Assembly (NCBI GenBank): GCA_017965425.1
Contig: JAGCPY010000039.1
Span: 11,389-75,388, forward strand
Origin: Bacteroidaceae bacterium
Lineage (GTDB): Bacteria; Bacteroidota; Bacteroidia; Bacteroidales; Bacteroidaceae
Length of the DNA: 64,000 bases
Direction: 5' to 3'
Below the pieces are notes generated by a model that was not told the origin of the DNA, did no database searches, and saw nothing but the letters and a program-made list of their open reading frames with translations. Each line of letters opens with the position of its first letter. Positions within the stretch are counted from its first letter, which is position 1. Positions 9,358-60,514 of the stretch are shown in pieces. The position numbers and the translations under genes are program-made.

Positions 9358-12300
9358 TCAAGTCTGGTTAATGGCGTAGGAAAGCCCTTCCTGACTCTTG
9401 ATGTAGTCGATGAGGTCGCGACGTACATTGATTTGTCGGGCACGGCTTCGCAAGGTCAGGTGCATCTTTCCTTCCGGGTCGAGGATGCGGAAATAGAGAC
9501 TGGTGTTTCCCTTGTTGTTTTTCAGCAGTTCGTCCAGCGAGAGGACGATGTCGTTGTTGAGCCCGCTGAGGGGCAGGGTGATGGTGATGCTCTCGACGAG
9601 CTGGTCTTTCACATTGCTGAGGAACTCGATTTTGCCAATACAGATTTCGATGCGGTTGGCATTGAATTTTCCTGGTTGCACGCGGGCGGTGATGAAAAGC
9701 GTGTTGCCGATGTCCATATAGTTGCACCACGTCGCCCAATCTTGCCCCCACAGCGCCAGCTCATAGCTGCCAGAGAAATCCTCCAAGGTCACAATGCCAT
9801 AAGGTTGTCCGCTTTTCCCGATGCCCTTGCGCTGGGCGGTGACGATGCCTCCGAAAGTAATGTCTTGGTTCAGAAGCCGTTCGCGGTTCGCCAATTCCAC
9901 GACATGCGTGGTGCAGACGTCGTTCAGGATAATGGAGAAATCGTCCAGCGGATGTGCCGAGAGGTAGATGCCAACAAGGTCGCGTTCTTTGTTCAACCGT
10001 TCCAACACGCTCCAGGTTTCAAAGTCCGTGGGGATGGAAGGGGTGGCCACCTCAACAGCGTTAAAGTCGCCGAACAAAGAGCATTCAGCGCTCTGCTTAC
10101 TCTCCTGATAGAGAATCCCGTAACGGACAAGCGTGTCGATGAAAGGTTCTCCCTTTGCATTCGTCGCGAAGAACTGTTCGCGCTGGATGTTCTTGAAGCT
10201 GTCGAGCGCACCGCTGAGCACGAGGCTTTCCATGCCACTGCGCTTGACAGCAGGGATGTTGACGCGCTGAACGAAATCGAAGATACTGGTGAAAGGACCG
10301 TTTTTATCGCGCTCTTGGATGATGGCTTCGACAGCCGTCTCGCCCAAGCCCTTGATGGCACCCAAGCCAAAACGCACATTGCCATCGACATCGACGCTGA
10401 ACTTCTGGCGGCTTTGGTTGATGTCGGGACCGAGTGTACTGATGCCCAAGGCCTTGCACTCGCTCATCAGTTTGGTGATTTCGTTGATGTCGTCGAGGCT
10501 TCGGCTCATGACGGCAGCCATGTATTCGGCAGGGAAGTTGGCTTTGAGCCATGCCGTCTGGTAAGCCACCCAAGAGTAGCAAGTCGCATGGCTCTTGTTG
10601 AAGGCGTAGGAAGCAAACTTCTCCCAGTCGGCCCATATCTTCTCCAGTTTCTTGGGGTCGTGGCCATTGGCCTGCCCTTGCGTGATGAACTGAGGCTTCA
10701 TGTGATCCAGCTTGTCCTTCAGCTTCTTGCCCATTGCCTTGCGCAGGGTGTCGCTCTCGCCTCTGGTGAAGTTGGCCAGTTGGCGTGAAAGCAACATCAC
10801 TTGCTCCTGATAGACCGTGATGCCATAGGTGTCCTTCAGGTACTTTTCCATACAAGGAATGTCGTACTCCACAGGCGCGCGACCTTGTTTGCGTTCTATG
10901 AAGTTGGGAATATAGTCCATCGGTCCAGGCCGGTAGAGGGCGTTCATGGCGATGAGATCCTCAAAAGTCGAGGGCTGCAACTCACGCAGATACTTCTGCA
11001 TACCGGCAGACTCAAACTGAAATGTGCCCACGGTGAGGCCGTCGCAGTACAGCTGGTAGGTGGCCGGGTCTTCGATGTCGATGTGGTCGATGTCCACACA
11101 GATGCCCAGGCTCTCCTTGATGATACTGACGGCTTCCTTGATGATGCTCAACGTCTTCAACCCAAGGAAGTCCATCTTGATCAATCCCGTCTCTTCGATG
11201 ACGGAACCCTCGTACTGGGTGCAGAGCAGCTTTTCACCCGTTTCCTTGTCTTCGGCAGTCGAGACAGGAACCCAGTCGCTGACGTCGTCGCGACAGATGA
11301 TGACGCCGCAGGCGTGTACGCCGGTGTTGCGGACATTGCCCTCGAGCATCTGGGCATAACGGATGGTGTCGCGCATGACTTCATTGGGCGAGGCCGCGGC
11401 TTGTTGCAGTTCGGGCACACAGGCGATGGCATTGGTCAGGTTCATCTTGCGTGGCTTGCCGTCGGGACCATCGGGCAGGCGGTCGGGGATGGTCTTCACG
11501 AGGGCATTGGTCACGTCGAGCGGCAATTTCTGCACCCGGGCCACGTCCTTGAGTGAAGACTTGGTGGCCATCGTGCCGTATGTGATGATGTGTGCCACGT
11601 TCGGCTCGCCATATTTTTGCGTGACCCATGAGAGGACTTTTCCACGCCCGTCGTCGTCGAAGTCAACATCTATATCGGGCAAGGAGATACGGTCTGGGTT
11701 CAAGAAGCGCTCGAACAGAAGGTCATATTTGATGGGATCCACCTTCGTGATTCCCAGGCAATAGGCGACGGCAGAGCCGGCAGCGGAGCCACGGCCAGGG
11801 CCGACACTCACCTTCAGTTCGTAACGGGCGGCATTGATATAGTCCTGCACAATGAGAAAGTATCCCGGGAAACCCATTGTCTTCATGACGTGAAGCTCGA
11901 AGTTCAAACGCTCCTTGATATCCTCGGACAGCGGATCACCATAAATCTTTCGTGCGCCCGCATACGTGAGTTCGGCCAAGTAGTCGGCTTCCAGCTTCAG
12001 GCGGTAGAGCTTATCGACGCCGCCCAGACGCTGCACCTTCTTTTCTGCCTCTTCGCGGGAACAGATGACGTTGCCGTGTTCGTCACGCGTGAACTCCTCG
12101 AAGAGTTCTTCGTCCGTGAACCGCTTGTGGTAGTCTTCTTCCGTACCGAAACTCTCCGGGATGGGAAAGTTTGGCATGATGGGGCCGTGGTCGATGCTGT
12201 AAACCTCCACCTTGTCAAGCACTTCGCAGGTGTTGGCCAGCGCTTCCGGCACGTCGGAGAAGATCTCATTCATCTCGGCACGGGTCTTGAACCATTCCTG

Positions 12301-15663: not shown

Positions 15664-15706
15664 CGCTCCGTGTTCTTCACCCTTCGTTCTTGCCTTTTTC
15701 GCAAAA

Positions 15707-15802
15707 CCCTCACCATCCCTCACCAATCCCTCACCAATCCCTCACCTGTATTCTGTTCACGTTCAGTCGCTTATCTGAAAAGGTGAGGGATTGAGGGTTT
15801 TT
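15707..15802. repeat. CCCTCACC hairpin element (family R2), terminator-like
   Basis: CCCTCACC(a/at)n tandem copies ending in CCCTCACCT, then a 33-nt loop, then AGGTGAGGGATTGAGGGTTTTT. It lies downstream of pyrH. Confidence 0.8.
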
Positions 15803-15870
15803 CGTGTAAAAAACAAGGAGTAGAGAGGGAGGAGGGCATGAATAGGCCTGCAACAGACACCATCTGACCC

Positions 15871-26743: not shown

Positions 26744-26903
26744 AAGGTGATGTTAGTTATGAATGCGTCATCCTTTGTTCAAAAAAGGAAAAAAACGTGT
26801 CAAAGCGTTCAAAAAGAACGATATTTACTGTTGGAAAGAGCAAAAAGGCAACCTCGAAAGGTCAAGAAATGACGGGTGACTGCTAAAAGACAACCCGCTG
26901 AAG

Positions 26904-26990
26904 GTCCATATCTTCTTTCATAAGGTGTACACCTTCCGGCAGGAACATACACACCTTCTCCCTGCAATCCATACACGCTATCATGTCTTT
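26904..26990. repeat. Degenerate array of four ~22-bp repeats (family R1)
   Basis: Units start at 26904, 26925, 26947 and 26969. The second unit contains the palindrome AAGGTGTACACCTT. Confidence 0.7.
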
Positions 26991-26999
26991 TTCCGTGGA

Positions 27000-27223
27000 C
27001 ATCCCTCACTCCCTCACCTATTAGCTCATCTGTTTGAAAACAAGCCGTTTGCAGGTGAGGGTTCGGTGAGGGAATGGTGAGGGATGGTGAGGGATATTGC
27101 ACATAAACACGCAATCCCTCACCATCCCTCACCATTCCCTCACCATTCCCTCACCATTCCCTCACCTGGAAACAGCTCATTTCCAAGAGGATGAGGAACA
27201 AGGTGAGGGATTGAGGGATTTTT
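27000..27223. repeat. Double CCCTCACC hairpin element (family R2)
   Basis: Two CCCTCACCT-N33-AGGTGAGGG hairpins with loops at 27020-27052 and 27168-27200. Between them is a central palindrome of GGTGAGGGA(a/t) tandem copies around 27096-27113. The element ends GGGATTTTT. Confidence 0.85.
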
Positions 27224-27262: not shown

Positions 27263-27454
27263 TTAGCGACTCCAATCGTCATCCCAGATGTTGTAGCTGT
27301 TGCCTTTCACGGCATCGTCACCGTCGCCTCCATACATCGTGGAGGGATTGAGTTCGATGGCATTATTATCTCCAACTTCATTGGAAGTGTTCACGGGCAA
27401 TTCCAACACCATATAAGTTTCCTGCAAGGCAGGTATGATATATGTCTTTTTCAT
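27263..27454 (-). CDS. Mini-ORF P1 (63 aa), paralog of P2/P3
   Basis: MKKTYIIPALQETYMVLELPVNTSNEVGDNNAIELNPSTMYGGDGDDAVKGNSYNIWDDDWSR. The tracked ORF extends 19 aa further upstream, into a repeat arm. Confidence 0.6.
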   Translation of the reverse strand: MKKTYIIPALQETYMVLELPVNTSNEVGDNNAIELNPSTMYGGDGDDAVKGNSYNIWDDDWSR

Positions 27455-27463
27455 ATCTTTTAA

Positions 27464-27610
27464 AGACCCACCCCACCCCCTCCCTGTATGGGAGGGGAGC
27501 GACTGGCGCATGATAGGAGTTATCGGGTCATGGTTTAGTTGTTTGTATTATGATTGATATTTGTCTTCCACCCCTCGAGCCCTCCCTGACGGGAGGGTTG
27601 GGGTGGGTCT
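27464..27610. repeat. GC-rich inverted-repeat cassette (family R3), MITE-like
   Basis: Left arm AGACCCACCCCACCCCCTCCCtgtatGGGAGGGG. Right arm CCCTCCCtgacGGGAGGGTTGGGGTGGGTCT. The interior is AT-rich. It fills the gap between the protein C stop and the P1 start. Confidence 0.8.
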
Positions 27611-27625
27611 GCTGAGAGAGGGTCT

Positions 27626-36573: not shown

Positions 36574-38893
36574 CGTCGTTGCCAATGCCGCGGGAGCGGT
36601 TGGGTTGTGAGCCAAGGTCGAAGCGGAGAGAGCCTCCACGAAGGAGGTCTTCGTGACGGAGGTAGTTGCGGGCATAGGGCTGGCCGTTGAAGGTCATGCG
36701 CTGGATGTAGGGGGGAAGGTTGGTTCCGACGGGAGAACCGTCGGACACAGAGGCGTCGATGGTGAGGTTCTTGCCAGAGGAAAGGTGGAGGGTGGTCTTG
36801 CGGAAATAGGGCGTGCCAAGGGCGTATTCGCCAGAACCAGGACAGACGGGATAGAAGCCGAGAGCAGAGAAGACATACCAGGCAGAGGTCTGGCCGTTGT
36901 CCTCGTCACCACAGTAGCCGTCGGGAAGGGGCGTATAGAACTTATCCATGACCTCACGCACGCGTTGCTGTGTTTTCCAAGGCTGGCCTGCCCAGTCGTA
37001 GAGGTAGATCATGTGCTGGATGGGCTGGTTGCCATGAGCGTAGTTGCCCATGTTCATAATCTGCATCTCACGGATTTCGTGGATGACACCGCCATAGTAG
37101 CTCTCGTCGAAGAGAGGCGGCACGTTGAACACGGAGTCGAGCATGGCAACGAAGACATTCTTGCCACCCATGAGGCGGATGAGACCCTCGGGGTCGTGAA
37201 AGACAGACCAAGTATAGTGCCAGGCATTGCCTTCGGTGAAAGCATCGCCCCACTTGAGCGGGTTGAAGGGTGATTGGAACTTGCCATCTTTGTTGCGGCC
37301 ACGCATCAGCTTTGTTTCGGGGTCAAAGACGTTGCGGTAGTTGAGGGCGTGCTCACGGAAAGGCTTGAGTTCTTTCTCTTTCTTGCCGAGTTTTTTGCCG
37401 AGCTGATAGATGCACCAGTCATCGTAGGCATATTCAAGGGTGCGAGCTACGGACTCGCGGATATCGACATCATAAGGTACGTAGCCGAGGCGATTGTAAT
37501 GGTCGAAGCCGAGGCGACCGGTTGAGGAAACTTGCGGGTGGACAGCGTTTGCACCGTGTGTGACGGCTTGCCAGAGGGTTTCGATGTCGTAGGGGGAGGA
37601 CTTGACGGGTAAACCGTCAAGCACACTGAGTTTCAAGTAGGCATCGGCGACGACGGAAGCGGAGTTGTTGCCCACCATGCAACCACGATGACCGGGACTG
37701 GCCCATTCGGGCAGGAAACCACTTTCCTTGTAACAGTTGACGAGACCTTCCTGCATCTGGAGGTTCATTTCGGGATAGACGAGGTTGAGCAGGGGGAAGA
37801 GGCAACGGAAGGTGTCCCAAAAGCCCGTATCAGTGAAATAATAGCCAGAACATACCTTGCCGGTGTGGGGGCTGTAGTGAATGGGCTGACCAGCAGCGTC
37901 GTACTCGAAGAAGGAACGGGGGAAGAGCACGGAACGGTAGAGGCAGGAATAGAAGGTGCGCAGGTGGTCGATATTATCGTCCTCGACTTCGATGCGTCCG
38001 AGGACATCGTCCCAACGCTGACGTGCGCCTTCGCAGATTTGGTCGAAGGAAGAGTTGCCCAGCTCTTGCAAGTTGCGTTCGGCTTGTTCGAAGCTAATGA
38101 AAGAGGAAGCTATGCGGAGGGTTACTTGCTCACCGCGCCGTAAAGAGGGGAAGCCTACCACAGCAGTAGCATGATCAGCCATCAGCTCGACACGACCTTC
38201 TTGGAGCTTGTCGCCATCGGCTGTCGCCACAAAGGAGATGGGATGGGAGAACTCGATGATGAAATAGTTCTTGAAGCCTTGTGGCACGCCACCGCTATTT
38301 TTGGTGGTATATCCCAACAGACGACGGTGCTGGGCATCCACAGCCACATAAGAACCCTTATCAAAGGGGTCGATGACCACTCGTGGCTCTGTCGTCTCAG
38401 GATAGGTCAGACGCATCATGGCAGCACGGGTGGTGGGAGTTAGTTCTGCCACCACGTCCCAGTCGGCGAGATATACCTTATAATAATAAGGTGTAGCAAC
38501 TTCGGCTTTGTGGCTAAACCAAGAGGCACGGTCATCTTCTTTGAAAACGGTGCGGGTAGTTGGCATGATGGCAAACTGACCGTAGTCGTTGATCCAAGGT
38601 GAAGGTTGATGGGTTTGCTTGATACCACGGATTTTGTCCTCGGTATAAACGTAAGCCCAACCATCGCCCATACGCCCTGTCTGGGGTGTCCAGAAGTTCA
38701 TGCCCCATGGCAAGGCGATGGCTGGATAGGTGTTACCCGTGGACAAAGAATGCTTGGACATGGTGCCCACGAGGGTGGAAACGTAAGAAACAGACCCACC
38801 CCCGGCCCTTCCTGAGAGGGAGGGAGCGGTTACCTTTGCGGGCAAAAGAGTGGTTGTTAATAAGGATATGAATAAAACGAATATTTTTTTCAT
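36548..38893 (-). CDS. GH92 exo-alpha-mannosidase
   Basis: Motifs YVSTLVGT...GNTYPAIALPWGMNFWTPQT, TLEYAYDDW, GDEDNGQTSAWYVFSALGFYP. The signal peptide MKKIFVLFISLLTTTLLPA is followed by a repeat-encoded linker PSLSGRAGGGS. Confidence 0.9.
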   Translation of the reverse strand: MKKIFVLFISLLTTTLLPAKVTAPSLSGRAGGGSVSYVSTLVGTMSKHSLSTGNTYPAIALPWGMNFWTPQTGRMGDGWAYVYTEDKIRGIKQTHQPSPWINDYGQFAIMPTTRTVFKEDDRASWFSHKAEVATPYYYKVYLADWDVVAELTPTTRAAMMRLTYPETTEPRVVIDPFDKGSYVAVDAQHRRLLGYTTKNSGGVPQGFKNYFIIEFSHPISFVATADGDKLQEGRVELMADHATAVVGFPSLRRGEQVTLRIASSFISFEQAERNLQELGNSSFDQICEGARQRWDDVLGRIEVEDDNIDHLRTFYSCLYRSVLFPRSFFEYDAAGQPIHYSPHTGKVCSGYYFTDTGFWDTFRCLFPLLNLVYPEMNLQMQEGLVNCYKESGFLPEWASPGHRGCMVGNNSASVVADAYLKLSVLDGLPVKSSPYDIETLWQAVTHGANAVHPQVSSTGRLGFDHYNRLGYVPYDVDIRESVARTLEYAYDDWCIYQLGKKLGKKEKELKPFREHALNYRNVFDPETKLMRGRNKDGKFQSPFNPLKWGDAFTEGNAWHYTWSVFHDPEGLIRLMGGKNVFVAMLDSVFNVPPLFDESYYGGVIHEIREMQIMNMGNYAHGNQPIQHMIYLYDWAGQPWKTQQRVREVMDKFYTPLPDGYCGDEDNGQTSAWYVFSALGFYPVCPGSGEYALGTPYFRKTTLHLSSGKNLTIDASVSDGSPVGTNLPPYIQRMTFNGQPYARNYLRHEDLLRGGSLRFDLGSQPNRSRGIGNDDAPYSFSK

Positions 38894-38957
38894 CGTGCTT
38901 TTGAATATTGTTCTTATTAGGTAATCGCTCCCTAACAGGGATGACGGGGGTGGGTCT
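38792..38957. repeat. GC-rich inverted-repeat cassette (family R3) straddling the GH92 start
   Basis: Left arm AGACCCACCCCCGGCCCTTCCTgagAGGGAGGG lies inside the GH92 codons. Right arm ...GGGGGTGGGTCT lies 23 nt from the upstream gene's stop. The interior carries the GH92 ATG and signal peptide. Confidence 0.8.
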
Positions 38958-38979
38958 GGGTCTATTATTATCTATCCTC

Positions 38980-40080
38980 TTACCACTGAATGGCCTGATC
39001 TTCGTTCGGGATCTGCGTATTGAGCTGGCGTTCGAGAGTCAGGATGCCCTTGACGGTGTAGGGCATTTCATAGCCTTCAACGGAAGTGTAGTCGGTATAG
39101 TTGTACTCGATGCCACTGATGATGACATAGCGATGTTTCAACCACGGCTGCACCTCATCCATCTGCTCATAGATGCGATAAGCCGTCTGACCAGTGCTCT
39201 GGAATTTGTTCTTGTCGGCGTTGTCAGACGTGAGAACGACATGTCCCTCCGTCCCATCTTCGTTATCAGGTACGAATTGGAAGAAGACTTTGTAGTTTTG
39301 GCGGTCAACACGTGTCTCATCGATGTTGCCGGCATAGAAGAAGATGCTGTTCTCATTGACCACATAGCCTCTTGCTGTTTCCATACCCGTAGCATTTGTG
39401 GGGTCGTCAGCATTGGTGATGGTCAGTGTAGTAGCCGAATAGTTGCCCGAATAATCGTTGTAGGGATAGATACGCAACATAGCTTTGGCATAGTTCTTAC
39501 GAGGATGAGGCTGATAGCCGTCACCTCTCTGAATTTCAAGGGGAAGCACCCACTTATCAACCATGTTGATACCACCATTCTTAGTGAAGTCGAACTGAAT
39601 CTTCAACAAAGCTACGTCTTGTCCGTTGGCAATCTGGATCGTGGATGGATAAGTGGCAAAGTCACTCATATCCTTATAATATAAATCGGTGATATCTGCA
39701 CGATAGGCAGGATTTCCAAAACGCTCGAAGTTCAGCTGGGCGAGTGTGTCGCTGTGTCCAATCTTCACAAGGAGGTCTTTGTCGTTATCTGTTGTTCCGC
39801 TGACAATGACTGGCAGCTCATAGTGTGAGAGCCCCGTACTACCATAGATAGCATTGCCATTGTCATCATGACGGGTGTACGGGACATAGACTGCCGTAAC
39901 GCCGTTGTCGTTCAGAGGAGCCTTAAAGCTGATAAAGTGTTCATACTGCTCTTCCTTCCACTCGTCGTTGCAGGCTGTCAGGAAGGGGACAATCAGCAGG
40001 AACAGCAGCCCCACCCCCCTGCCCCTCCCTATAACGGAGGGGAATAAAGACCTTAATATATTGCTCTTATATGTTTCCAT
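38980..40080 (-). CDS. PUL-encoded surface lipoprotein (SusE/F position, possible glycan-binding protein)
   Basis: Lipobox ...LLFLLIVPFLTAC. It sits immediately downstream of SusD. The family is not assigned with confidence (DUF4973/DUF4361-like is only a guess). Confidence 0.6.
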   Translation of the reverse strand: METYKSNILRSLFPSVIGRGRGVGLLFLLIVPFLTACNDEWKEEQYEHFISFKAPLNDNGVTAVYVPYTRHDDNGNAIYGSTGLSHYELPVIVSGTTDNDKDLLVKIGHSDTLAQLNFERFGNPAYRADITDLYYKDMSDFATYPSTIQIANGQDVALLKIQFDFTKNGGINMVDKWVLPLEIQRGDGYQPHPRKNYAKAMLRIYPYNDYSGNYSATTLTITNADDPTNATGMETARGYVVNENSIFFYAGNIDETRVDRQNYKVFFQFVPDNEDGTEGHVVLTSDNADKNKFQSTGQTAYRIYEQMDEVQPWLKHRYVIISGIEYNYTDYTSVEGYEMPYTVKGILTLERQLNTQIPNEDQAIQW

Positions 40081-40156
40081 AATGATTCTAATATATGAAT
40101 GTTTATTCTTGTTAGGTGACCACCCCCTCCCAAAAGGGAGGGTGAAGGGTGGGTCT
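40007..40156. repeat. GC-rich inverted-repeat cassette (family R3) straddling the lipoprotein start
   Basis: Left arm AGCCCCACCCCCCTGCCCCTCCctataacGGAGGGG is translated as PSVIGRGRGVGLL. Right arm CCCTCCCaaaaGGGAGGGTGAAGGGTGGGTCT ends 1 nt from the SusD stop. Confidence 0.8.
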
Positions 40157-40157
40157 T

Positions 40158-42404
40158 TTAGTCATTATATTGCCATCCAGGGTTCTGTACCAGATTCTTG
40201 TTGCGTTTGAGGTCGGTATGAGAAATCGGCCAGAAGTACATCTTATCATTGAAATTGGCAGAGAGATTGTACACGGGGATAACCTGCATGAACTCATCGC
40301 GGTTTTGTTGTGTCTGGAAGACATTCAAACCATAGACACGCTTGTTTTCCTCGACAGGTGCATCCATCCAACGACGGAGATCGAAGTAGCGCTTGCCTTC
40401 ACCCATGAGTTCAATCATGCGCTCACGCTTGATCTTCTCGCGGAAGAGATTGGCATCGTTATAGACTTCGGCGGTATAATCATGCAAACCTGCACGGATG
40501 CGAACAGGCTGCACACCATTCTTCATTTCATCGATGTCGCGGCTGATAGTGATGTCCTGTCCCTTCCAGCTCTTGATGGTATAGCTCTTGGTGAGCTCGT
40601 TGAGGCATTCGGCGTACATCATCAAGATATCAGCATAGCGCATGGCAGGCTCAAACTTCTCACGGAAGTGACCATAGTCATGTTGTGCGTCACGGAAGTC
40701 ATCAGGATGGTAGAACTTCTTGATACCGATGCCTGTGCGGAGATAAGAGAAGGCATTGATATAGCCATTACCGCCCGAACGGTAGTAGAAAATCTGAGCA
40801 TTGCGCTGTGAAGAGGTGGGATTCTGAAGCTGTTCCCAGTAGCTACCACTAAAAGCTACACTGGCATAGAAACGCGGTTCGCGTTTCACATATTGCTTGG
40901 AGACGTTCATGCCAGGAAAACGGCGCAAGTTCTGGGAGAGTTCAGGATAATCTCCGTTCTGGATCTCACCACGACTGGTCCAGCCTGTTTCACGCTCCAA
41001 CGAGTTACCAGCATCATAGCCTTCGACACCGTCCTTACGCCATTCGCGATACATGCCAGGAGCATCTGTACCGTCTTTCATATAATATGTGTCACACATC
41101 TTCTGAGTCATACCGTGTGTGTTCCATCCATTCAGGGAAACAGGCATGGAGTGTGCCACCATAGCGCCGAGACCGTTATCATTATCCCCCATGTTCATGT
41201 TGGAACCACGGGTGAAAATCAACTCGGGATTATCGACTGCACTGGCTGTTCCGTTGAAAAGGTTGCGATAGGAGAGATAGGGGTCGATATCCTTCCAACC
41301 TTTAGGCCAGTTGTTCTCGGAAAAGACAGGGTCATAGTCAGGTGTCACGGTGAGCGGAGCACCATCAGCTTCCACGGTATTGATACCAGCATGATAAAGC
41401 TCATATCCACCAAGGTCCATGACATCCTTGCAGGCAGCCGCAGCACGAGCCCATTTTGATTCGTCATAGTCAAGTGAGAGGAGGTGAGTTCCATCGAAGT
41501 TCACCAATGCTTTGGCAATATTATCCGTTACGGTGGCAGGATGCTTACCATTCTTCAGTTGTCCGTTCGCCAATGGACTGGCGGCGTAAGTGAGTGCGAT
41601 GGCACGGGTTGCCAAGCAGGCGCCACGTGTAGGACGAGCGATGTTAGCCTCGTCTCGCTTGGTCGTCCAGCGGGGAGAAATCTCGTTGGCGGCCTTGGCC
41701 ATTTCGTTGGCAATATAGTTAGCACACTCTTCGTAGGTGGCACGTGGTGTGGCCAAGTCATCGTATTCCAACGTATAGTCTGCGCCTTCATCGGGCATGA
41801 TGGGCACAGGACCGAACTTACGGAGCAAGAGCCAATAATAATAGGCACGCACAAAGCGAGCCTGACCTTTTCTGTCAAGACGATCTTCCTCGCTCAAGTC
41901 GGTATTCATGTCGATGTTCTTGATGAAAATACTGGCTTGGTAGATACCTTGATAGCTGCGCACCCATGCATTTTGTCCAACACGTTCTGTATAACCTCCT
42001 TCGCGGAAAGTATTATAAGAGGTAAAACCACGGTCTTTGGCATCGCCATAAGCATAGTCACGATCGCCGTAGTAGATATCATCGGCGAAGCAGAACGGGT
42101 TCCAGTCACTGTTCTCTCCACCGGTTCCGCCCTTGGAGCACACCTCAAAGTTGCTGCCCGTCAGGAATGAAAAGGCATGAGCCAGCCACATGTCAACCTG
42201 TTCACGGTCTGTGAAGACGCTCTCCAGTGTCTTGCGGTCTTCAAAGTACTTGTCGGAATCAAGATCGGCACAGGAAGTCATTAGGAATGCAACCAGCAGG
42301 AGTAGCAGACCCACTCCCCTGCCCCTCCATAAGGAGGGGAGTATATACTTTTGCATATTACTCTTTTTCATATTTGTATTCATTTTTCTTTCTAATGAAA
42401 TCAT
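40158..42404 (-). CDS. SusD/RagB-family nutrient-binding outer-membrane lipoprotein
   Basis: Lipobox LLLLLVAFLMTSC. The size, the TPR-like helical N-half and the C-terminal ...NPGWQYND are typical, and it sits directly downstream of SusC. The start is ambiguous (ATGs at 42404, 42383, 42371 and 42356). Confidence 0.85.
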   Translation of the reverse strand: MISLERKMNTNMKKSNMQKYILPSLWRGRGVGLLLLLVAFLMTSCADLDSDKYFEDRKTLESVFTDREQVDMWLAHAFSFLTGSNFEVCSKGGTGGENSDWNPFCFADDIYYGDRDYAYGDAKDRGFTSYNTFREGGYTERVGQNAWVRSYQGIYQASIFIKNIDMNTDLSEEDRLDRKGQARFVRAYYYWLLLRKFGPVPIMPDEGADYTLEYDDLATPRATYEECANYIANEMAKAANEISPRWTTKRDEANIARPTRGACLATRAIALTYAASPLANGQLKNGKHPATVTDNIAKALVNFDGTHLLSLDYDESKWARAAAACKDVMDLGGYELYHAGINTVEADGAPLTVTPDYDPVFSENNWPKGWKDIDPYLSYRNLFNGTASAVDNPELIFTRGSNMNMGDNDNGLGAMVAHSMPVSLNGWNTHGMTQKMCDTYYMKDGTDAPGMYREWRKDGVEGYDAGNSLERETGWTSRGEIQNGDYPELSQNLRRFPGMNVSKQYVKREPRFYASVAFSGSYWEQLQNPTSSQRNAQIFYYRSGGNGYINAFSYLRTGIGIKKFYHPDDFRDAQHDYGHFREKFEPAMRYADILMMYAECLNELTKSYTIKSWKGQDITISRDIDEMKNGVQPVRIRAGLHDYTAEVYNDANLFREKIKRERMIELMGEGKRYFDLRRWMDAPVEENKRVYGLNVFQTQQNRDEFMQVIPVYNLSANFNDKMYFWPISHTDLKRNKNLVQNPGWQYND

Positions 42405-42464
42405 ATAATAACAAATCTTTTAAGTAACCATTCCCTCCCTCAAAGGAAGGGTTAGGGTGGGTCT
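42307..42464. repeat. GC-rich inverted-repeat cassette (family R3) straddling the SusD start
   Basis: Left arm AGACCCACTCCCCTGCCCCTCCataaGGAGGGG is translated as PSLWRGRGVGLL. Right arm ...GGAAGGGTTAGGGTGGGTCT overlaps the SusC stop codon by 2 nt. Confidence 0.8.
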
Positions 42465-45400
42465 ATATATTCACTTGCAAGCCAGCGGTAATGGCCTTGG
42501 TAATAGGATAGTCTTCGCCACGAGGCTGCAGGGATTCAGGATCCCAGGTGTCGAACTTCTTATGTAGGAAGAAGAGGTTGGTGGCCGACACGTAAACACG
42601 AATGTTCTGGAAATGAATCTTGTTGACGATGCGCTTGGGCAAGGTGTAACCGATGTCGAGGTTCTTTAAGCGAAGATAGCGACCATCGCGGAGCCAGAAT
42701 GTTGAGTTGCGGTCGTTGTTGCTGTTGCCTCCATAACTCAAACGAGGATAATTTGCATTGGGATCTTCGTTGGCAGTAATGCCCAGCTTGGTAGCTGTCT
42801 CGGAATCTACCCAACGGTTGTCGAGCATTCCCTTGAAGATATTACCCCACTGGCTTTCACTGAACGCCCAGACGCACTTGCCATAGGTCGAGAAGGTGCT
42901 CTTACCTGCTCCTTGGAAGTGGAGGTTGAAGTCGAAGCCCTTCCAAGTCACAGAAACACCGAGGCCATAGATAAGACCAGGCCGGCTGGTGGCACCGATG
43001 GCACAAACGTCACCATCATTGACAACACCGTCACCATTGACATCCTTATACTTAATGTCACCAGGTTGTACCGTACCGAATTCCTGTGTCGGTGAGTTGC
43101 GGATGTCATCATAATCCTTGAATAATCCTAAGGCAATGAGTCCGCGCACTTGATCAACACGGTAACCATACTGGTTCTGATAAGCATAGACGTTGTTTTC
43201 CTCGTCATACTCATCTATACGGTTCTTGCTATAGGTGATATTACCACGAACTGTCAATCCTACATCTCCGAACTTGTCGTTATAGCTAAAGTTTCCATCA
43301 AAACCACGAGAGGTGACAGCACCCACGTTGGCTTTCGGATAGTTCCAGCCATTATCATCCCAATATTCAAGACCAACAGTCGTTGGCAGGAAGCGGCGCT
43401 CCTGGAAGATACCAGTACGTTTTTCATCGAAATAGTCCATCGTCAACGAGAATTTGTTGTTGAAAAGGACGAGGTCAATACCCAAGTCATTCTTCGTTGC
43501 AACTTCCCATGTGACATAGTCAGAAGACACCTGACGATAGCGGACGGAACCATAAGAATTCTGTCCATTCTGTCCCCAAGTATAACCGTTTCCAGAAGCC
43601 TCCAATGTATAAAGATAGGGGAAACGGTTGCTGCCAGTGGCATCTGAACCGACCTTACCGTTGGAGAAGCGAATCTTGAACATATCCAACCATTTCACTT
43701 TGCCTTTCACCCAAGGTTCCTCGCCCACGTTCCAAGCCACAGACCAAGCAGGGAAGAAGCCCCAGCGGTGGCCGTCGGCAAAGTTCTCGGAACCGTTATA
43801 ACCGAAGTTGAAGTCAGCGAAGTAACGCGAAGCAAAGTTGTAAGTTACTTGAGCGGCCAGTCCCTTGTTCTTACGTGATACGGAATTTTTCACGTCAGTG
43901 CCCAAATTCTGGGTGCTGATGTCCTGATCCTCGGTGAACTTCATATTTGCGGCGACATTGTGATAGTCTCCGAACTTACGGTCCCAATGCAAGAGCAGGT
44001 CGAGGAACTCACGGCGTGAGCCACTGTTGGCACTCGACTGTGTCATGTCGCGCACCGACTGCACCTGTTGGAAATCGAGCAGACCGGTCTCGGTGTTGCG
44101 AGAGCGTGCTGCATATAGAGCAGGCAGGCGGTGGTGCTGGATGCTGTTGCTGTTATAGGTATCATAACCGAAACGGCCCGTGAACCTCAGACCTTTCGTG
44201 ATGAAGCTGAAATCCTGCTCCAAAGTGACGTTGGTCTGGATGTTGTTCTGCCATTCAGTGTTATAACCCGTCTGCGTGGAGCTGACCCAAGGGTTAATAT
44301 AGTTTTCATCGAGGGTGTAAACTGTAACACCATTCTCCTCAGACTCGTTAAATACACCCTTGGCTGGGTAAGTTCCATTGCTGTAAAGCACTGGAGTGTA
44401 AAGAGGATTGTAACCGAACATCTGCCCCCACACCTTATCATCACCGATACCAGGGCTATTGCGTTTGTTCAGATTGCCACTGATACCAAGCTTAAGGACG
44501 GTTGTTTTGGTGATGTCCACATCAACGTTCATACGGTAATTCCAGCGGTCATAGTTAGCATTGGTATCATAACGGTCACGTAGTGTCTTGTCGGTCTTAT
44601 ACATACCTTCATCCTGTGTGTAAGCCATAGATACATAGTAGCGAGCCGTTTCGCCACCACCACTGATGTTCAAGTTGGCACGGTAGCTCATGGCACCGTT
44701 CTTCAACAACAGATCTTGCCAATCGACGTTCGGGTAGAGGTCGGGGTCAAGGCCATAGCGGATGATGTCAAGTTCCACAGGCTGATAGAGGATACCGAGG
44801 TTGCGTGTGACACGAGCCTCGTTGAGATAATTGGCATAGTCGAAACCGCTGACGAATTCAGGCGTGATGGTGCGCGTGTTGTAAGAGGTTTCCACCTTGG
44901 CATTGATATTCACCTTACCGGCCTTACCATGTTTGGTGGTGATGAGGACGACACCGTTAGCACCCTTGGAACCGTAAATGGCCGTGGCGGAAGCATCTTT
45001 CAGCACCGAGAACGACTCAATGTCCTCGATATTGATGTCATCGAGGTTTTCGCGTTCGAAACCGTCAACCAGGATATAGGCCGAAGAGCTGGCACCAAAG
45101 GTGGAGATACCGCGAATCCAGAATTCCGAGGTATTCTTACCAGGTTGTCCAGACTTCTGGTATGCCATCACACCTGCGACATTACCTGCCAGCGTGTTCG
45201 TCAGGTTGGAGGTGTTGAAATGCTTCAGTTCTTCCATCTTGACGTTGGTGATAGCACCCGTCAGGGTGAGCTTCTTTTGAGATTGCATACCCGTGACAAC
45301 GACTTCGTCAAGAGCACTGGTGGCTTTTTCCTGAAGAGTAATATCAATTTTCTGCTGGTCTTTGACCACCACTTCCTGAGTTTCAAATCCCATGAAGGAG

Positions 45401-45618
45401 TAAACCAGCGTCTTGTACTGTTGCACCTTGATGCTGTATTCACCGTCGATGTTGGTGATTGTTCCCAAACCTTTTGAGTCTTTCACAATGATGTTGGCAC
45501 CTGGGAGCGGTTCACCTGTGGCATCCTTGACGACACCCGTCACGGTGACTTCCTTCTGTGCCAGCACCGAGAAGGTGGTGCCGAGCAAGAGGAACAATGT
45601 GGCAATATATTTCTTCAT
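42463..45618 (-). CDS. SusC/RagA-family TonB-linked outer-membrane transporter
   Basis: Carboxypeptidase-regulatory-like N-terminus VTGVVKDATGEPLPGANIIVK. Plug motifs FWIRGISTF, SFSVLKDASATAIYGSKGANGVVLITTK. 1051 aa. Confidence 0.95.
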   Translation of the reverse strand: MKKYIATLFLLLGTTFSVLAQKEVTVTGVVKDATGEPLPGANIIVKDSKGLGTITNIDGEYSIKVQQYKTLVYSFMGFETQEVVVKDQQKIDITLQEKATSALDEVVVTGMQSQKKLTLTGAITNVKMEELKHFNTSNLTNTLAGNVAGVMAYQKSGQPGKNTSEFWIRGISTFGASSSAYILVDGFERENLDDINIEDIESFSVLKDASATAIYGSKGANGVVLITTKHGKAGKVNINAKVETSYNTRTITPEFVSGFDYANYLNEARVTRNLGILYQPVELDIIRYGLDPDLYPNVDWQDLLLKNGAMSYRANLNISGGGETARYYVSMAYTQDEGMYKTDKTLRDRYDTNANYDRWNYRMNVDVDITKTTVLKLGISGNLNKRNSPGIGDDKVWGQMFGYNPLYTPVLYSNGTYPAKGVFNESEENGVTVYTLDENYINPWVSSTQTGYNTEWQNNIQTNVTLEQDFSFITKGLRFTGRFGYDTYNSNSIQHHRLPALYAARSRNTETGLLDFQQVQSVRDMTQSSANSGSRREFLDLLLHWDRKFGDYHNVAANMKFTEDQDISTQNLGTDVKNSVSRKNKGLAAQVTYNFASRYFADFNFGYNGSENFADGHRWGFFPAWSVAWNVGEEPWVKGKVKWLDMFKIRFSNGKVGSDATGSNRFPYLYTLEASGNGYTWGQNGQNSYGSVRYRQVSSDYVTWEVATKNDLGIDLVLFNNKFSLTMDYFDEKRTGIFQERRFLPTTVGLEYWDDNGWNYPKANVGAVTSRGFDGNFSYNDKFGDVGLTVRGNITYSKNRIDEYDEENNVYAYQNQYGYRVDQVRGLIALGLFKDYDDIRNSPTQEFGTVQPGDIKYKDVNGDGVVNDGDVCAIGATSRPGLIYGLGVSVTWKGFDFNLHFQGAGKSTFSTYGKCVWAFSESQWGNIFKGMLDNRWVDSETATKLGITANEDPNANYPRLSYGGNSNNDRNSTFWLRDGRYLRLKNLDIGYTLPKRIVNKIHFQNIRVYVSATNLFFLHKKFDTWDPESLQPRGEDYPITKAITAGLQVNI

Positions 45619-50277: not shown

Positions 50278-51303
50278 ATGAAAAAGAGCTTATTTATCCT
50301 TCTTATCCCCTTGTTCCTGTTCGGGATGGCAGCTTGCCATCAGCCCCGTCCGTCCACCCAACAGACACAGATGCTTTTCCGTTCCGGTCACTACCCACAC
50401 GCTTTCTTCTGGAACGGCACCTATTATTATACAATGCAGCCCGATGGCAACGACATCACCCTCTATGCGACCCGAGACCTATCTCTCTTGCCGCAGTCGC
50501 AGCATAAGGTCGTGTGGAGTGCCGACTCACTGGGCTTCCAGCATTTCTGGTCACCAGAAATCCACCGCATCAACGGACGATGGTACATCTACTTCGAGGC
50601 CGATGATGGCAACACCGACAACCACCAGCTCTACGTGATCGAGAATACCGGCGACGACCCCATGCAGGGGACATGGCAACTGCGCGGACCGCTTCAGACC
50701 AACGAAGACTGGAACTTTGGCATTCATCCAAACGTCCTCAGCGTCGGCGGAGAACTTTACCTGTTCTGGTCAGGATGGCCAAAGCGACGCGTGGAACACG
50801 AGACGCAATGTATCTATATCGCCCGCCTCAGCGATCCGTGGACCGTCGCCTCCGAGCGTGTCATGCTTTCACGTCCTGAATATGAGTGGGAACGCCAGTG
50901 GATTAACCCCGACGGCAGCCGCTCTGCCTATCCCATCTACGTCAACGAGAATCCACAAGCACTACTTTCACCCGACGGACGCCACGTACACCTTTATTAT
51001 TCTGCCAGTGGCATTTGGACACGCTACCATGTTCTTGGCGCACTCTCGGCTCCGGCTAATGCCAACCTGCTCGACCCTGGAGTATGGACCAAAGCGCCCG
51101 AACCCGTGCTGGTTGATACGGCTGTTTATGGAGCTTCCAACATCTGCGTAGTGCCTGACACCGTGTCATCGTCGGATGCAAGTCGTGCGTTGCTACTCTA
51201 CGATGCTCTTTGGATGGAGGATGGGCATGAACAACGCAGTGTCTTCCTCAAGACAATCAGCTGGACCGATGACGGACAACCCGTGTTCTGCCAACCTACA
51301 TAG
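50278..51303 (+). CDS. GH43-family glycoside hydrolase (lipoprotein)
   Basis: Lipobox LFGMAAC. Motifs FWSPEIHRINGRWYIYF and NENPQAL. Confidence 0.75.
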   Translation: MKKSLFILLIPLFLFGMAACHQPRPSTQQTQMLFRSGHYPHAFFWNGTYYYTMQPDGNDITLYATRDLSLLPQSQHKVVWSADSLGFQHFWSPEIHRINGRWYIYFEADDGNTDNHQLYVIENTGDDPMQGTWQLRGPLQTNEDWNFGIHPNVLSVGGELYLFWSGWPKRRVEHETQCIYIARLSDPWTVASERVMLSRPEYEWERQWINPDGSRSAYPIYVNENPQALLSPDGRHVHLYYSASGIWTRYHVLGALSAPANANLLDPGVWTKAPEPVLVDTAVYGASNICVVPDTVSSSDASRALLLYDALWMEDGHEQRSVFLKTISWTDDGQPVFCQPT

Positions 51304-51316
51304 GTTTTTTCTTGTA

Positions 51317-51519
51317 AATAGTCTCAATCCCTCACCTCTTGCAGTATTTGACTGTCGGATAATTATTTACGTGTGAGGGAATGGTGAGGGAATGGTGAGG
51401 GATGGTGAGGGATTCAGGAAAAGCCTCACCATCCCTCACCTATCTCTCACCAATCCCTCACCTGCAACACGTTGTCATCCAAATATTTACTACAAAAGGT
51501 GAGGGATTGAGACTTTTTT
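51317..51519. repeat. Double CCCTCACC hairpin element (family R2)
   Basis: Two hairpins with 33-nt loops at 51338-51370 and 51464-51496. The centre is a palindrome of GGTGAGGGA tandem copies. The element ends GAGACTTTTTT. It lies between convergent genes. Confidence 0.85.
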
Positions 51520-51564
51520 CAGGAAAAACCTCATGTAGAAGTGGAAAGAGAACGTAACGAATAA

Positions 51565-60436: not shown

Positions 60437-60514
60437 AAAAATCCCTCAATCCCTCACCTACAAGTTCCTTTTATTCAAGCAGTTATCGCAAAAGGTGAGG
60501 GATTGAGGGTTTTT
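60437..60514. repeat. CCCTCACC hairpin element (family R2), near-perfect
   Basis: AAAAATCCCTCAATCCCTCACCT, a 33-nt loop (60460-60492), then AGGTGAGGGATTGAGGGTTTTT. Confidence 0.85.

Follow-up and report, generated by a model that had tools for sequence, protein, structure and literature searches.

Introduction

Rickettsia palindromic elements (RPEs), which Ogata and colleagues reportedly described in 2000, are said to have many copies that are inserted in frame in conserved genes and translated there as an extra surface peptide. Here we describe four palindromic elements, E1 to E4, in a 64,000-nucleotide stretch of DNA from a Bacteroidaceae bacterium (assembly GCA_017965425.1, contig JAGCPY010000039.1, positions 11,389 to 75,388 of the forward strand), which we call the window throughout. 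Three of these elements lie at gene junctions of a polysaccharide utilization locus (PUL). The resemblance to RPEs is one of kind only, not of sequence family. Both are palindromic repeats of 100–150 bp, and in the present family 17 of 61 doublets are in frame inside genes, with inserts in UvrA. In contrast to RPEs, the elements come from another sequence family and phylum, are doublets of tagged hairpins, form start-carrying N-terminal fusions in a quarter of cases, and have an arm that is also seen in other phyla.

In Proteobacteria, the repetitive extragenic palindromic (REP) sequences of the BIME and REPIN–RAYT systems (RAYT, REP-associated tyrosine transposase) are tagged hairpins that form inverted doublets and are associated with Y1/HUH transposases (PMC3116915, PMC3337134, PMC3733652, PMC6006769). 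Stop codons supplied by the ends of REPs, and REP copies within open reading frames (ORFs) and at N-termini, have been reported (PMC3733652). The repeats described here share with REPs and REPINs an end-tagged hairpin, a prevalence of inverted doublets along with tandem clusters, the lack of a target-site duplication, placement just past stop codons, termini and loops that supply stops, some copies in ORFs and at N-termini, and symmetric arms. They differ in their tag, which is AGAC(CCACCCC) with a 3' end ...GTCT rather than GTAG or CGTC, and in their variable interiors. They also have a much higher intragenic share (28% inside ORFs and 25% N-terminal) instead of being predominantly extragenic, and no cognate RAYT flanked by arms was found in the sampled loci. 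Co-transcribed miniature inverted-repeat transposable elements (MITEs) such as Correia/NEMIS, ERIC and RUP, as summarized in PMC3733652, are likewise small inverted repeats beside coding sequence that are transcribed with operons and form strong hairpins, but they have DDE-type terminal repeats and target duplications, neither of which is found here. We conclude that E1–E4 are probably selfish REP/RPE-like palindromic repeats, whose copies survive at sites where they terminate a reading frame, restart one or are read through.

A repeat family with tagged hairpin arms

The window contains the tag AGACCCAC 11 times, compared with an expected 2.1, and none of 100 shuffles reached this count. Eight of these occurrences are arms, arranged as four convergent pairs. 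Each arm consists of AGACCCAC(CCC), a few variable bases and then a CCCTCC(C)-loop-GGGAGG(G) hairpin. A preliminary description of the window had reported four elements of 147–166 bp (eight arms) with a common layout. All were recovered in place, and its proposal that they form one repeat family was borne out by an arm profile and a scan of public genomes. The scan covered one genome per species (185,579 species) with the DNA pattern AGACCCACCC-N(2-8)-CCCTCCC-N(3-6)-GGGAGGG and matched at least 120 stretches; about 97 of the 120 listed are from rumen or gut Prevotella, Prevotellaceae or Bacteroidaceae metagenome-assembled genomes (MAGs), with a few Paludibacteraceae. The counts of arms, doublets and orientations given below come from loci sampled among the matches listed. 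An nhmmer profile of the arm identified 223 arms of at least 11 bits in about 97 listed loci; over all sampled loci it made 318 matches at this threshold, compared to one in reversed-sequence controls.

In a logo of 197 arms, the tag AGACCCACCCC is invariant and precedes the CCCCTCCC-loop-GGGAGGGG hairpin. The complete arm unit is about 40–50 nt long and comprises AGACCCACCCC, some three variable nucleotides, the CCCCTCCC/GGGAGGGG hairpin of 7–8 bp with a GNRA-like loop, and then AGTRRTTACC. Its edge is sharp at AGAC, and the flank shows just a weak A/G preference. Arms are usually arranged as a convergent inverted doublet around a variable AT-rich interior: 66 pairs of neighbouring arms were convergent (tags outward), two were divergent and 15 tandem, and a tandem arm cluster was found at locus L013. 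Doublets span 63–224 bp, mostly 95–186 bp, and mismatched tag pairs (AGACCCAC with GGAGGGTCT) are common among them. Interiors are mostly unrelated between elements, even inside one MAG. None of 61 refined doublets is flanked by a target-site duplication of at least 3 nt, and 2-nt flank duplications number five against three expected. An Rfam search of E1–E4 gave no match to any element at E ≤ 1, and a literature search found no description of this palindromic repeat family. E1–E4 belong to a high-copy, apparently undescribed palindromic repeat family of rumen and gut Prevotellaceae.

The two arms of a doublet tend to match. Both arms carry an identical loop in 24 of 51 doublets (47%), compared to 14% for arms of different elements in the same genome and 3.9% for random pairs. 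With each arm read starting at its own tag, and hence on opposite strands, the loops resemble GNRA loops (GTGA, GTAA, TGTGA). This argues that the symmetry is kept in the DNA and not on a single transcript. Joint changes in the two arms, such as those described below for E2, fit copying that depends on the hairpin, or conversion within one molecule; an RNA helix under selection would also fit and is not required. The predicted minimum free energy (MFE) structure of each window element is a single long hairpin with a z-score of -4.5 to -6, as would be predicted for any inverted doublet.

The same arm of about 40 nt (AGACCCACCCCC..CCCCTCCC-loop-GGGAGGGGAG) was also observed in Chloroflexota, Novosphingobium, Sphingomonas and Singulisphaera, in isolates of Steroidobacter and Peristeroidobacter, and in other genomes. 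There are 23 such stretches among the matches listed (L021, L022, L023, L035, L040, L041, L046-L048, L053, L056, L060, L066, L074-L076, L085, L105, L106, L118, L121, L123 and L124), against at most a few by chance, and they have bases in common beyond the search pattern. These cross-phylum arms are often divergent (GGGGTGGGT-N30-AGACCCACCCC), and in Steroidobacter a T-run comes after the arm hairpin, in the manner of a terminator. Translated arms are found in public protein catalogues as well: the entries P0121-P0125, of 53–74 aa, consist mostly of arm sequence (for example ...LPSLTGRGRGVGLL...), and false calls of small ORFs there seem to stem from the repeat family. A profile of the arm-coded N-terminal peptide gave five weak matches in 5.8 billion proteins, a search in which short matches cannot reach significance.

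Copies lie at the ends and starts of reading frames and within them

Automatic classification placed 17 of the 61 refined doublets (28%) in frame inside long ORFs and another 15 (25%) as N-terminal fusions, in which the interior holds an ATG and the reverse arm is read into a gene of at least 100 codons. Eight doublets lie between two convergent stop codons, 13 follow a stop in some other arrangement, three exactly fill a stop-to-start spacer, and the placement of five is unclear. Stop codons cluster either at -1 to -8 from the tag (23 cases) or in the hairpin loop at +21 to +24 (9 cases), and 71% of forward arms have a loop stop (the TGA or TAA of GTGA and GTAA loops) in one frame. Compared with composition-matched shuffles, reverse arms are not unusually open, and forward arms show an excess of one loop stop, which led us to reject the idea that arms are specially free of stop codons.

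Arms inside genes are read in all frames. Forward arms yield the peptides RPTPNPSREGGE, THPQPLPxREGS and DPPPTPPVREG, and reverse arms yield TPLPxREGxGVGL, PSLxGRGxGVGLL and SPPLQGGAGGGS. ORFs that are interrupted yet remain open include those for M16 peptidase-like and PriA-like proteins, PurL, GltB (several copies) and UvrA (three copies), as well as radical-SAM, GH35 and histidine kinase genes. The UvrA of locus L079 is collinear from end to end with solved UvrA structures save for two clean inserts, at residues 215-249 (35 aa) and 631-679 (49 aa), which are exactly the element-coded peptides; the structure chains are contiguous at the insert points (233 to 237; 607 to 607). N-terminal fusions are also present on proteins that are not exported, namely RNase HII, RibB, PdxA and a PaaK-like ligase, and on an MFS transporter. 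Arms are thus found in cytosolic housekeeping genes, at C-termini, between convergent genes and in all frames, a distribution that argues against a dedicated start cassette of the kind that the preliminary description had put forward.

Elements E1 to E4 in their gene context

Gene coordinates and domains were taken from the window ORFs, called by simple open-frame analysis, and from Pfam matches. The PUL genes are all on the minus strand, and we read the elements in gene sense. Elements E4, E3 and E2 bridge the upstream stop and the downstream start at the junctions between the genes for SusC (42463-45618), a SusD-family protein (40158-42404), a DUF4973/BT_3044-like lipoprotein (38980-40080) and a GH92 enzyme (36548-38893); a GH76 gene and a gene for a 1792-aa protein lie further downstream. 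As the preliminary description had noted, the interiors of these three elements carry the ATG of the downstream gene. Its broader statement that elements replace the intergenic spacers of the PUL holds for these three junctions, but the rest of about eight PUL junctions are without an element.

At the SusC/SusD junction, the distal arm of E4 (element 42307..42464, minus strand) is the forward, C-rich arm at about 42424-42464, and its AG overlaps the SusC stop TAG at 42463-42465. The AT-rich interior (about 42349-42423) has in-frame ATGs at 42404, 42383, 42371 and 42356; judged by orthologues, the likely SusD start is the ATG at 42371 (MKKSNMQKYIL). The reverse, G-rich proximal arm at 42307-42348 would be translated as YILPSLWRGRGVGL and is included in the signal-peptide n-region of SusD. 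E3 (40007..40156, minus strand) lies at the SusD/DUF4973-lipoprotein junction, with its distal arm (about 40115-40156) 1 nt past the SusD stop. Its interior holds GGTCACCTAACAAGAAT and the lipoprotein ATG at 40080, and its proximal arm (about 40007-40050), with a predicted translation of FPSVIGRGRGVGL, is part of the lipoprotein signal-peptide n-region. This arm ends in a variant terminus, AGCCCCAC. In both E3 and E4, the two arms are unlike in spacer, stem and loop, and pairing past 8-11 bp is poor.

E2 (38792..38963, minus strand), at the DUF4973/GH92 junction, has a degenerate hairpin in its distal arm (about 38920-38957) and an additional partial tag, AGACCCAG, at 38956-38963. The preliminary distances from the upstream stops were right for E3 (1 nt) and E4 (a 2-nt overlap), but the E2 gap is 22 nt rather than 23, or 16 nt to the additional partial tag. 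The E2 interior, with its ATG at 38893, codes for the entire GH92 signal peptide, which is complete and ordinary. The proximal arm (38792-38834) would be translated as KVTAPSLSGRAGGGS, residues about 21-34, after the signal peptide and ahead of the GH92 N-domain, the first Pfam domain, which begins at residue 37. The interior motif ACCTAA.AAGAA.AA..ATTCA, earlier said to be common to two elements, was seen in E2 and E3. E1 (27464..27625, minus strand; arms at 27568-27610 and 27464-27509) is downstream of the 1792-aa gene, the TAA stop of which, at 27626-27628, is directly followed by a tag-like AGACCCTC (27618-27625). E1 may be wholly untranslated, with the ATG of a small ORF (MKKTYII...) just downstream of it. 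This small ORF (27263-27448, minus strand; MKKTYIIPALQETYMVLELPVNTSNEVGDNNAIELNPSTMYGGDGDDAVKGNSYNIWDDDWSR) has neither a Pfam match nor an obvious signal peptide.

In gene sense, the SusD N-terminus reads ...MKKSNMQKYILPSLWRGRGVGLLLLLVAFLMTSC|ADLDSD, that of the lipoprotein METYKSNILRSLFPSVIGRGRGVGLLFLLIVPFLTAC|NDEW, and that of GH92 MKKIFVLFISLLTTTLLPAKVTAPSLSGRAGGGSVSYVSTLVGTMSKH. The SusD and DUF4973 arms must be translated because no other plausible start lies ahead of the hydrophobic core and lipobox Cys, and the GH92 arm precedes the Pfam domain. Judged from these sequences, the three arms are very probably translated, as was argued before. The earlier argument that no Met separates the arm from the Cys needs correction for SusD, which has a Met three residues before the Cys, albeit one useless as a start. 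The SusD and lipoprotein genes also have an in-frame GTG inside the tag that could in principle serve as a start. The arm peptide stays in frame in SusD orthologues that carry the arm. The arms were also said to be read in the same frame each time, and this is true of the 5' stem, in which CCC TCC encodes PS in all three genes, but not of the tag, which is read GGT GGG TCT (GGS) in GH92 and GTG GGT/GGG CTG (VGL) in SusD and the lipoprotein. The favoured reading is that the arms are translated as a tolerated by-product, with no designed function. The G-rich strand of all reverse arms (e.g. GGGAGGGGCAGGGGGGTGGG) is also a canonical four-tract G-quadruplex motif that would compete with the hairpin; in E4 (42307-42330) and E3 (40007-40032), this motif is on the mRNA sense strand and within the first codons of the gene.

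Gain, loss and change among orthologous loci

The arm peptide YILPSLxGRGRGVGLL is present in the SusD relatives P0001, P0003 and P0017 (90%, 69% and 65% identity) and decayed in P0002 (82% identity). About 110 of the 120 SusD orthologues listed (54-69% identity) are without it and have ordinary signal peptides such as MKKNIAKYVLLMACGIGLLAAC. The syntenic PUL of L004 has armless spacers of 15 nt between SusC and SusD and 52 nt between SusD and the lipoprotein, and E2 is present at its lipoprotein/GH92 junction. The lack of E3 and E4 in a locus that has kept E2 suggests that E3 and E4 are lineage-specific gains and that E2 is older. L001 contains E2, E3 and E4, with the proximal hairpin of E3 deleted. 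Arms are therefore present or absent among orthologous PULs. Orthologues keep E2 even where SusD identity is about 68%, and its two arms change together: the tags are CCAC/GTGG in the window and TCTC/GAGA in L004 and L001, with loops of TGTTA/TAACA and TTCGA/TCGAA, respectively.

L001, L002 and L003 encode identical SusD proteins, but their E2 copies differ, with one loop being TTCGA in one locus and TTTA in another. L003 (about 9714-9960, compared to 9448-9660 in L001/L002) has one more proximal arm and carries the 15-nt tag repeat GGGGGGAGAGTCCAC three times; the frame is kept, and its GH92 is 861 aa long versus 833 aa in L001/L002. In L232 (minus strand), upstream of GH92, the proximal arm is tandemly duplicated in frame as a 60-nt unit. 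Together, these differences show that the elements are dynamic on the time-scale of strains.

One GH92 surface loop also differs in three orthologues. L004 has a single forward arm there, RPTPDPSRQGGE (10684-10720), the window has SVLDGLPVKSSP (around residue 425), and L001 has a longer S/P/G-rich tract, with a second S/P-rich insert near its C-terminus. Decayed arms may be the source of such low-complexity GH92 linkers. The loop site is variable in all three orthologues, so arm boundaries cannot be read from a comparison of empty and filled sites.

Signal-peptide fusions and a recurring interior

A scan of metagenome contigs for the E4 arm subtype (GTATATACTCCCCTCC-N(3-7)-GGAGGGG) returned 124 arms, 33 of which fit an N-terminal fusion; most of the others are in short frames. 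The 33 fusions head long ORFs with M-x(7-14)-[KR]YILPSLxGRGxGVGLL, followed by a hydrophobic core and either a lipobox Cys or an AxA site. The proteins headed in this way belong to no fewer than 10 unrelated families, secreted or lipoprotein, including an efflux outer-membrane lipoprotein, a BamA/TamA-like protein, SusD and DUF4973 proteins of the window type, other SusD-like proteins, several lipoproteins and a 2497-aa protein. The distal arm is detectable 87-134 nt upstream in 22 of the 33 fusions, and it is decayed in L183 and L132. In L174 and L238 there is a proximal arm with no distal arm, and the upstream stop lies 4 nt before the ATG; an arm can therefore stand alone in a 5' coding region. 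Among other lone proximal arms are those of paralogous lipoprotein genes (MRAWKDKKYILPSL...) at L190, L195, L205, L207 and L209, directly upstream of which are tandem repeats of about 100 nt of the AGGAGT(A/T)T / AGGAGTAAGG type.

The evidence that elements bring the start codon with them is mixed, with most interiors unrelated and that of E2 coding for an ordinary signal peptide. One interior, though, recurs. Over 43 nt, the window's E3 interior shares 91% identity with the E4 interior of L001, and a shared ATG-bearing arrangement (distal arm, GGTYACCNAACAAGAAT, AT-rich stretch, ATGAAnACAnATAAGAGCnATATACnAAGGTATATACT, proximal arm) is found at four non-orthologous junctions: TIG/SusC (L132, from the genome of P0002), SusC/SusD (the window, L001 and L152), SusD/DUF4973 (the window and L232), and ahead of an unrelated 2497-aa gene (L221), where the upstream gene is also unrelated. 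Arms may have been gained on both sides of a native spacer and 5' gene end; alternatively, doublets may move as a whole, with rapid divergence of the interiors. The near-identity of E3 and E4 in L152 and L232 would be explained by gene conversion across the 2.3 kb that separate them.

A second repeat in the window

The window also contains an unrelated repeat of tandem 10-11-mers, GGTGAGGGA(AT), in nested inverted arrays that form long intergenic hairpins. GGTGAGGGA occurs 23 times against 0.57 expected, in arrays at 15689-15817, 27001-27220, 51296-51538 and 60438-60514. Below-threshold Rfam matches to miRNAs at 27002-27218 are spurious and caused by these hairpin arrays, and a 108-aa ORF at 26809-27135 that overlaps an array is probably not a gene.

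Discussion

A convergent doublet is the same on both strands, so oriented insertion would be unnecessary: every transcript would carry a C-rich forward arm, an AT-rich stretch and a G-rich reverse arm. The forward arm often supplies or abuts a stop codon, and the reverse arm seldom holds one. Copies at or in genes would survive only if an arm is read in frame, if an arm ends the upstream ORF, or if an interior ATG restarts the downstream ORF. Bacteroidota start translation without a Shine-Dalgarno sequence, from A/U-rich leaders, and initiation of this type would permit restarts at interior ATGs. From their sequence and orthologues, E2–E4 are probably of the restart type, and their proximal arms would have become the signal-peptide n-regions of SusD and the lipoprotein and the N-terminal linker of GH92. 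E3 and E4 presumably arrived after the split from element-free relatives, with E2 being older. More tentatively, the family may be mobilized by a Y1/HUH (RAYT) type of mechanism that recognizes single-strand hairpins, and gene conversion between the two arms could keep them alike.

Several observations weigh against selfish REP/RPE-like repeats. No RAYT-like ORF adjoins the arms in 1.75 Mb of sampled loci, and a regular expression for HUH and Y motifs, which had no match in the first 125 loci, picked out a single weak candidate over 244 loci. This candidate, at L183:8486-9646, was for now rejected as the cognate transposase, as its family has no arms within 4 kb in the four distinct places examined (five loci); its match to the NCBIfam REP_Tyr_transpos model (E = 1.5e-4) is below the cut-off, and one JGI homologue is named 'RayT'. 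The tags of the known REP superfamilies, GTAG and CGTC (PMC3733652), both differ from the one seen here. Copies do not share a conserved interior, even in one genome, which is unusual for REPINs copied whole, and to judge from their sequence some interiors may be native DNA flanked by two separately acquired arms. Element-free SusD orthologues start with MKTKNIKYLL or MNTKNIKYIM, which resemble the interior-coded MKTYKSNILRYIL. The tight stop placement and the interior at four junctions could reflect targeting or functional selection. Finally, the comparison sequences are nearly all MAG or metagenome assemblies, in which repeats can be misassembled.

The highly conserved family of the L183 candidate (homologues P0126-P0245, L245-L249) comprises 3136 homologues of about 340-430 aa, the top ones 72-86% identical. 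Its members have HUH-like PDHLHAVI and Y-like YVRMNPQR motifs and no Pfam domain, vary in length through an (IPAQG)n low-complexity insert, and adjoin McrBC or WYL genes or phage-like genes (Bro-N/ANT, DUF3987).

The full-length doublet could instead be an exapted, portable junction cassette that ends the upstream cistron, provides an AT-rich leader, a start codon and a cationic n-region (GRGRG), and moves between junctions, where it would drive the translation and export of downstream PUL proteins. The recurrence of GGTYACCNAACAAGAAT ... ATGAAnACAnATAAGAGCnATATACnAAGGTATATACT at four non-orthologous junctions, the arm peptide and hydrophobic core that begin at least 10 unrelated secreted or lipoprotein families, the narrow 87-134 nt between the arms of N-terminal fusions, and the conservation of E2 where SusD is about 68% identical are all in its favour. 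We nevertheless consider it rather unlikely, because these arms also begin cytosolic proteins and are found within UvrA, PurL, GltB and PriA-like genes, most interiors are unrelated, single arms occur without a partner in 5' coding sequence (L174), and arms are read in all frames. In addition, the host gene supplies the hydrophobic core and the lipobox, and orthologues with no element possess ordinary signal peptides. Arms come and go between strains in a way that suggests instability and not tuning, and the E3/E4 identity is explicable by gene conversion between repeats 2.3 kb apart. As to the MITE origin that the preliminary description had suggested for such a cassette, none of 61 doublets has a target-site duplication of at least 3 nt; one ATG-bearing interior does occupy the four junctions. 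We regard as unlikely the bolder proposal that the doublet is a mobile, self-contained 'cistron junction' that rewires PUL translation starts and export signals by hopping or gene conversion, with the 40-nt arm as a cross-phylum repeat type. Under that proposal, either strand would present a stop-proximal C-rich hairpin, a Shine-Dalgarno-free AT-rich leader with a start, and an open G-rich cationic arm. A derivation from an insertion sequence (IS) of the classical DDE-transposase kind, by deletion down to its terminal inverted repeats, would account for elements of 100-190 bp with imperfect inverted termini and many copies. This is highly improbable given the 0/61 duplications of at least 3 nt (with five against three expected at 2 nt), arms that are themselves hairpins and also occur singly and in tandem arrays (L013), and the failure to see any related IS ending in such termini across the 1.75 Mb of sampled loci, a search that was not genome-wide.

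Selection might also act on RNA, with 5' AGACCCACCC pairing with 3' GGGTGGGTCT in the polycistronic mRNA as a long-range helix that encloses start codons and would tune translation, processing or stability. E. coli REP hairpins directly after stops affect mRNA decay and upstream translation, and a helix would be consistent with the predicted long hairpin of each element (z -4.5 to -6) and with the joint changes in both arms of orthologous E2. However, any inverted doublet automatically folds into a long hairpin, and gene conversion or hairpin-dependent transposition at the DNA level would equally produce arm co-variation. The loop preference follows each arm's own strand, when one transcript would show it in one arm only; the arms of E3 and E4 differ and pair poorly past 8-11 bp, mismatched tag pairs are common, and many copies enclose no start codon. 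A selected helix is therefore quite improbable. Invertible segments are known upstream of Bacteroides susC/susD and capsule loci, and inverted repeats around an AT-rich segment of ~60-100 bp beside SusC/SusD genes are what a phase-variable segment would look like. This we find barely credible, as interior orientation is constant in the window, L001-L004, L132, L152, L198 and L232, the identical core is 8-11 bp only, copies lie inside housekeeping ORFs, and the PUL genes are without a recombinase domain. An integron attC reading was set aside, the termini being unlike attC core sites.

Prevotellaceae dominate the rumen and many guts, and a repeat that is translated into hundreds of Prevotellaceae proteins affects start calls, signal-peptide prediction, spurious ORFs and homology searches. 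It also brings strain-level length variation to surface glycan-utilization proteins, as in the GH92 of 833 versus 861 aa, and amounts to a natural experiment on the tolerance of signal peptides and enzyme loops for additional sequence. Should the junction elements alter mRNA stability or start use, they would be relevant to PUL stoichiometry, that is, to SusC/D relative to the enzymes. The cross-phylum recurrence of the arm and the doublets that donate starts are most worth pursuing. With this family, the phenomenon of 'selfish DNA inside protein-coding genes', described for Rickettsia, would reach an abundant lineage that is free-living.

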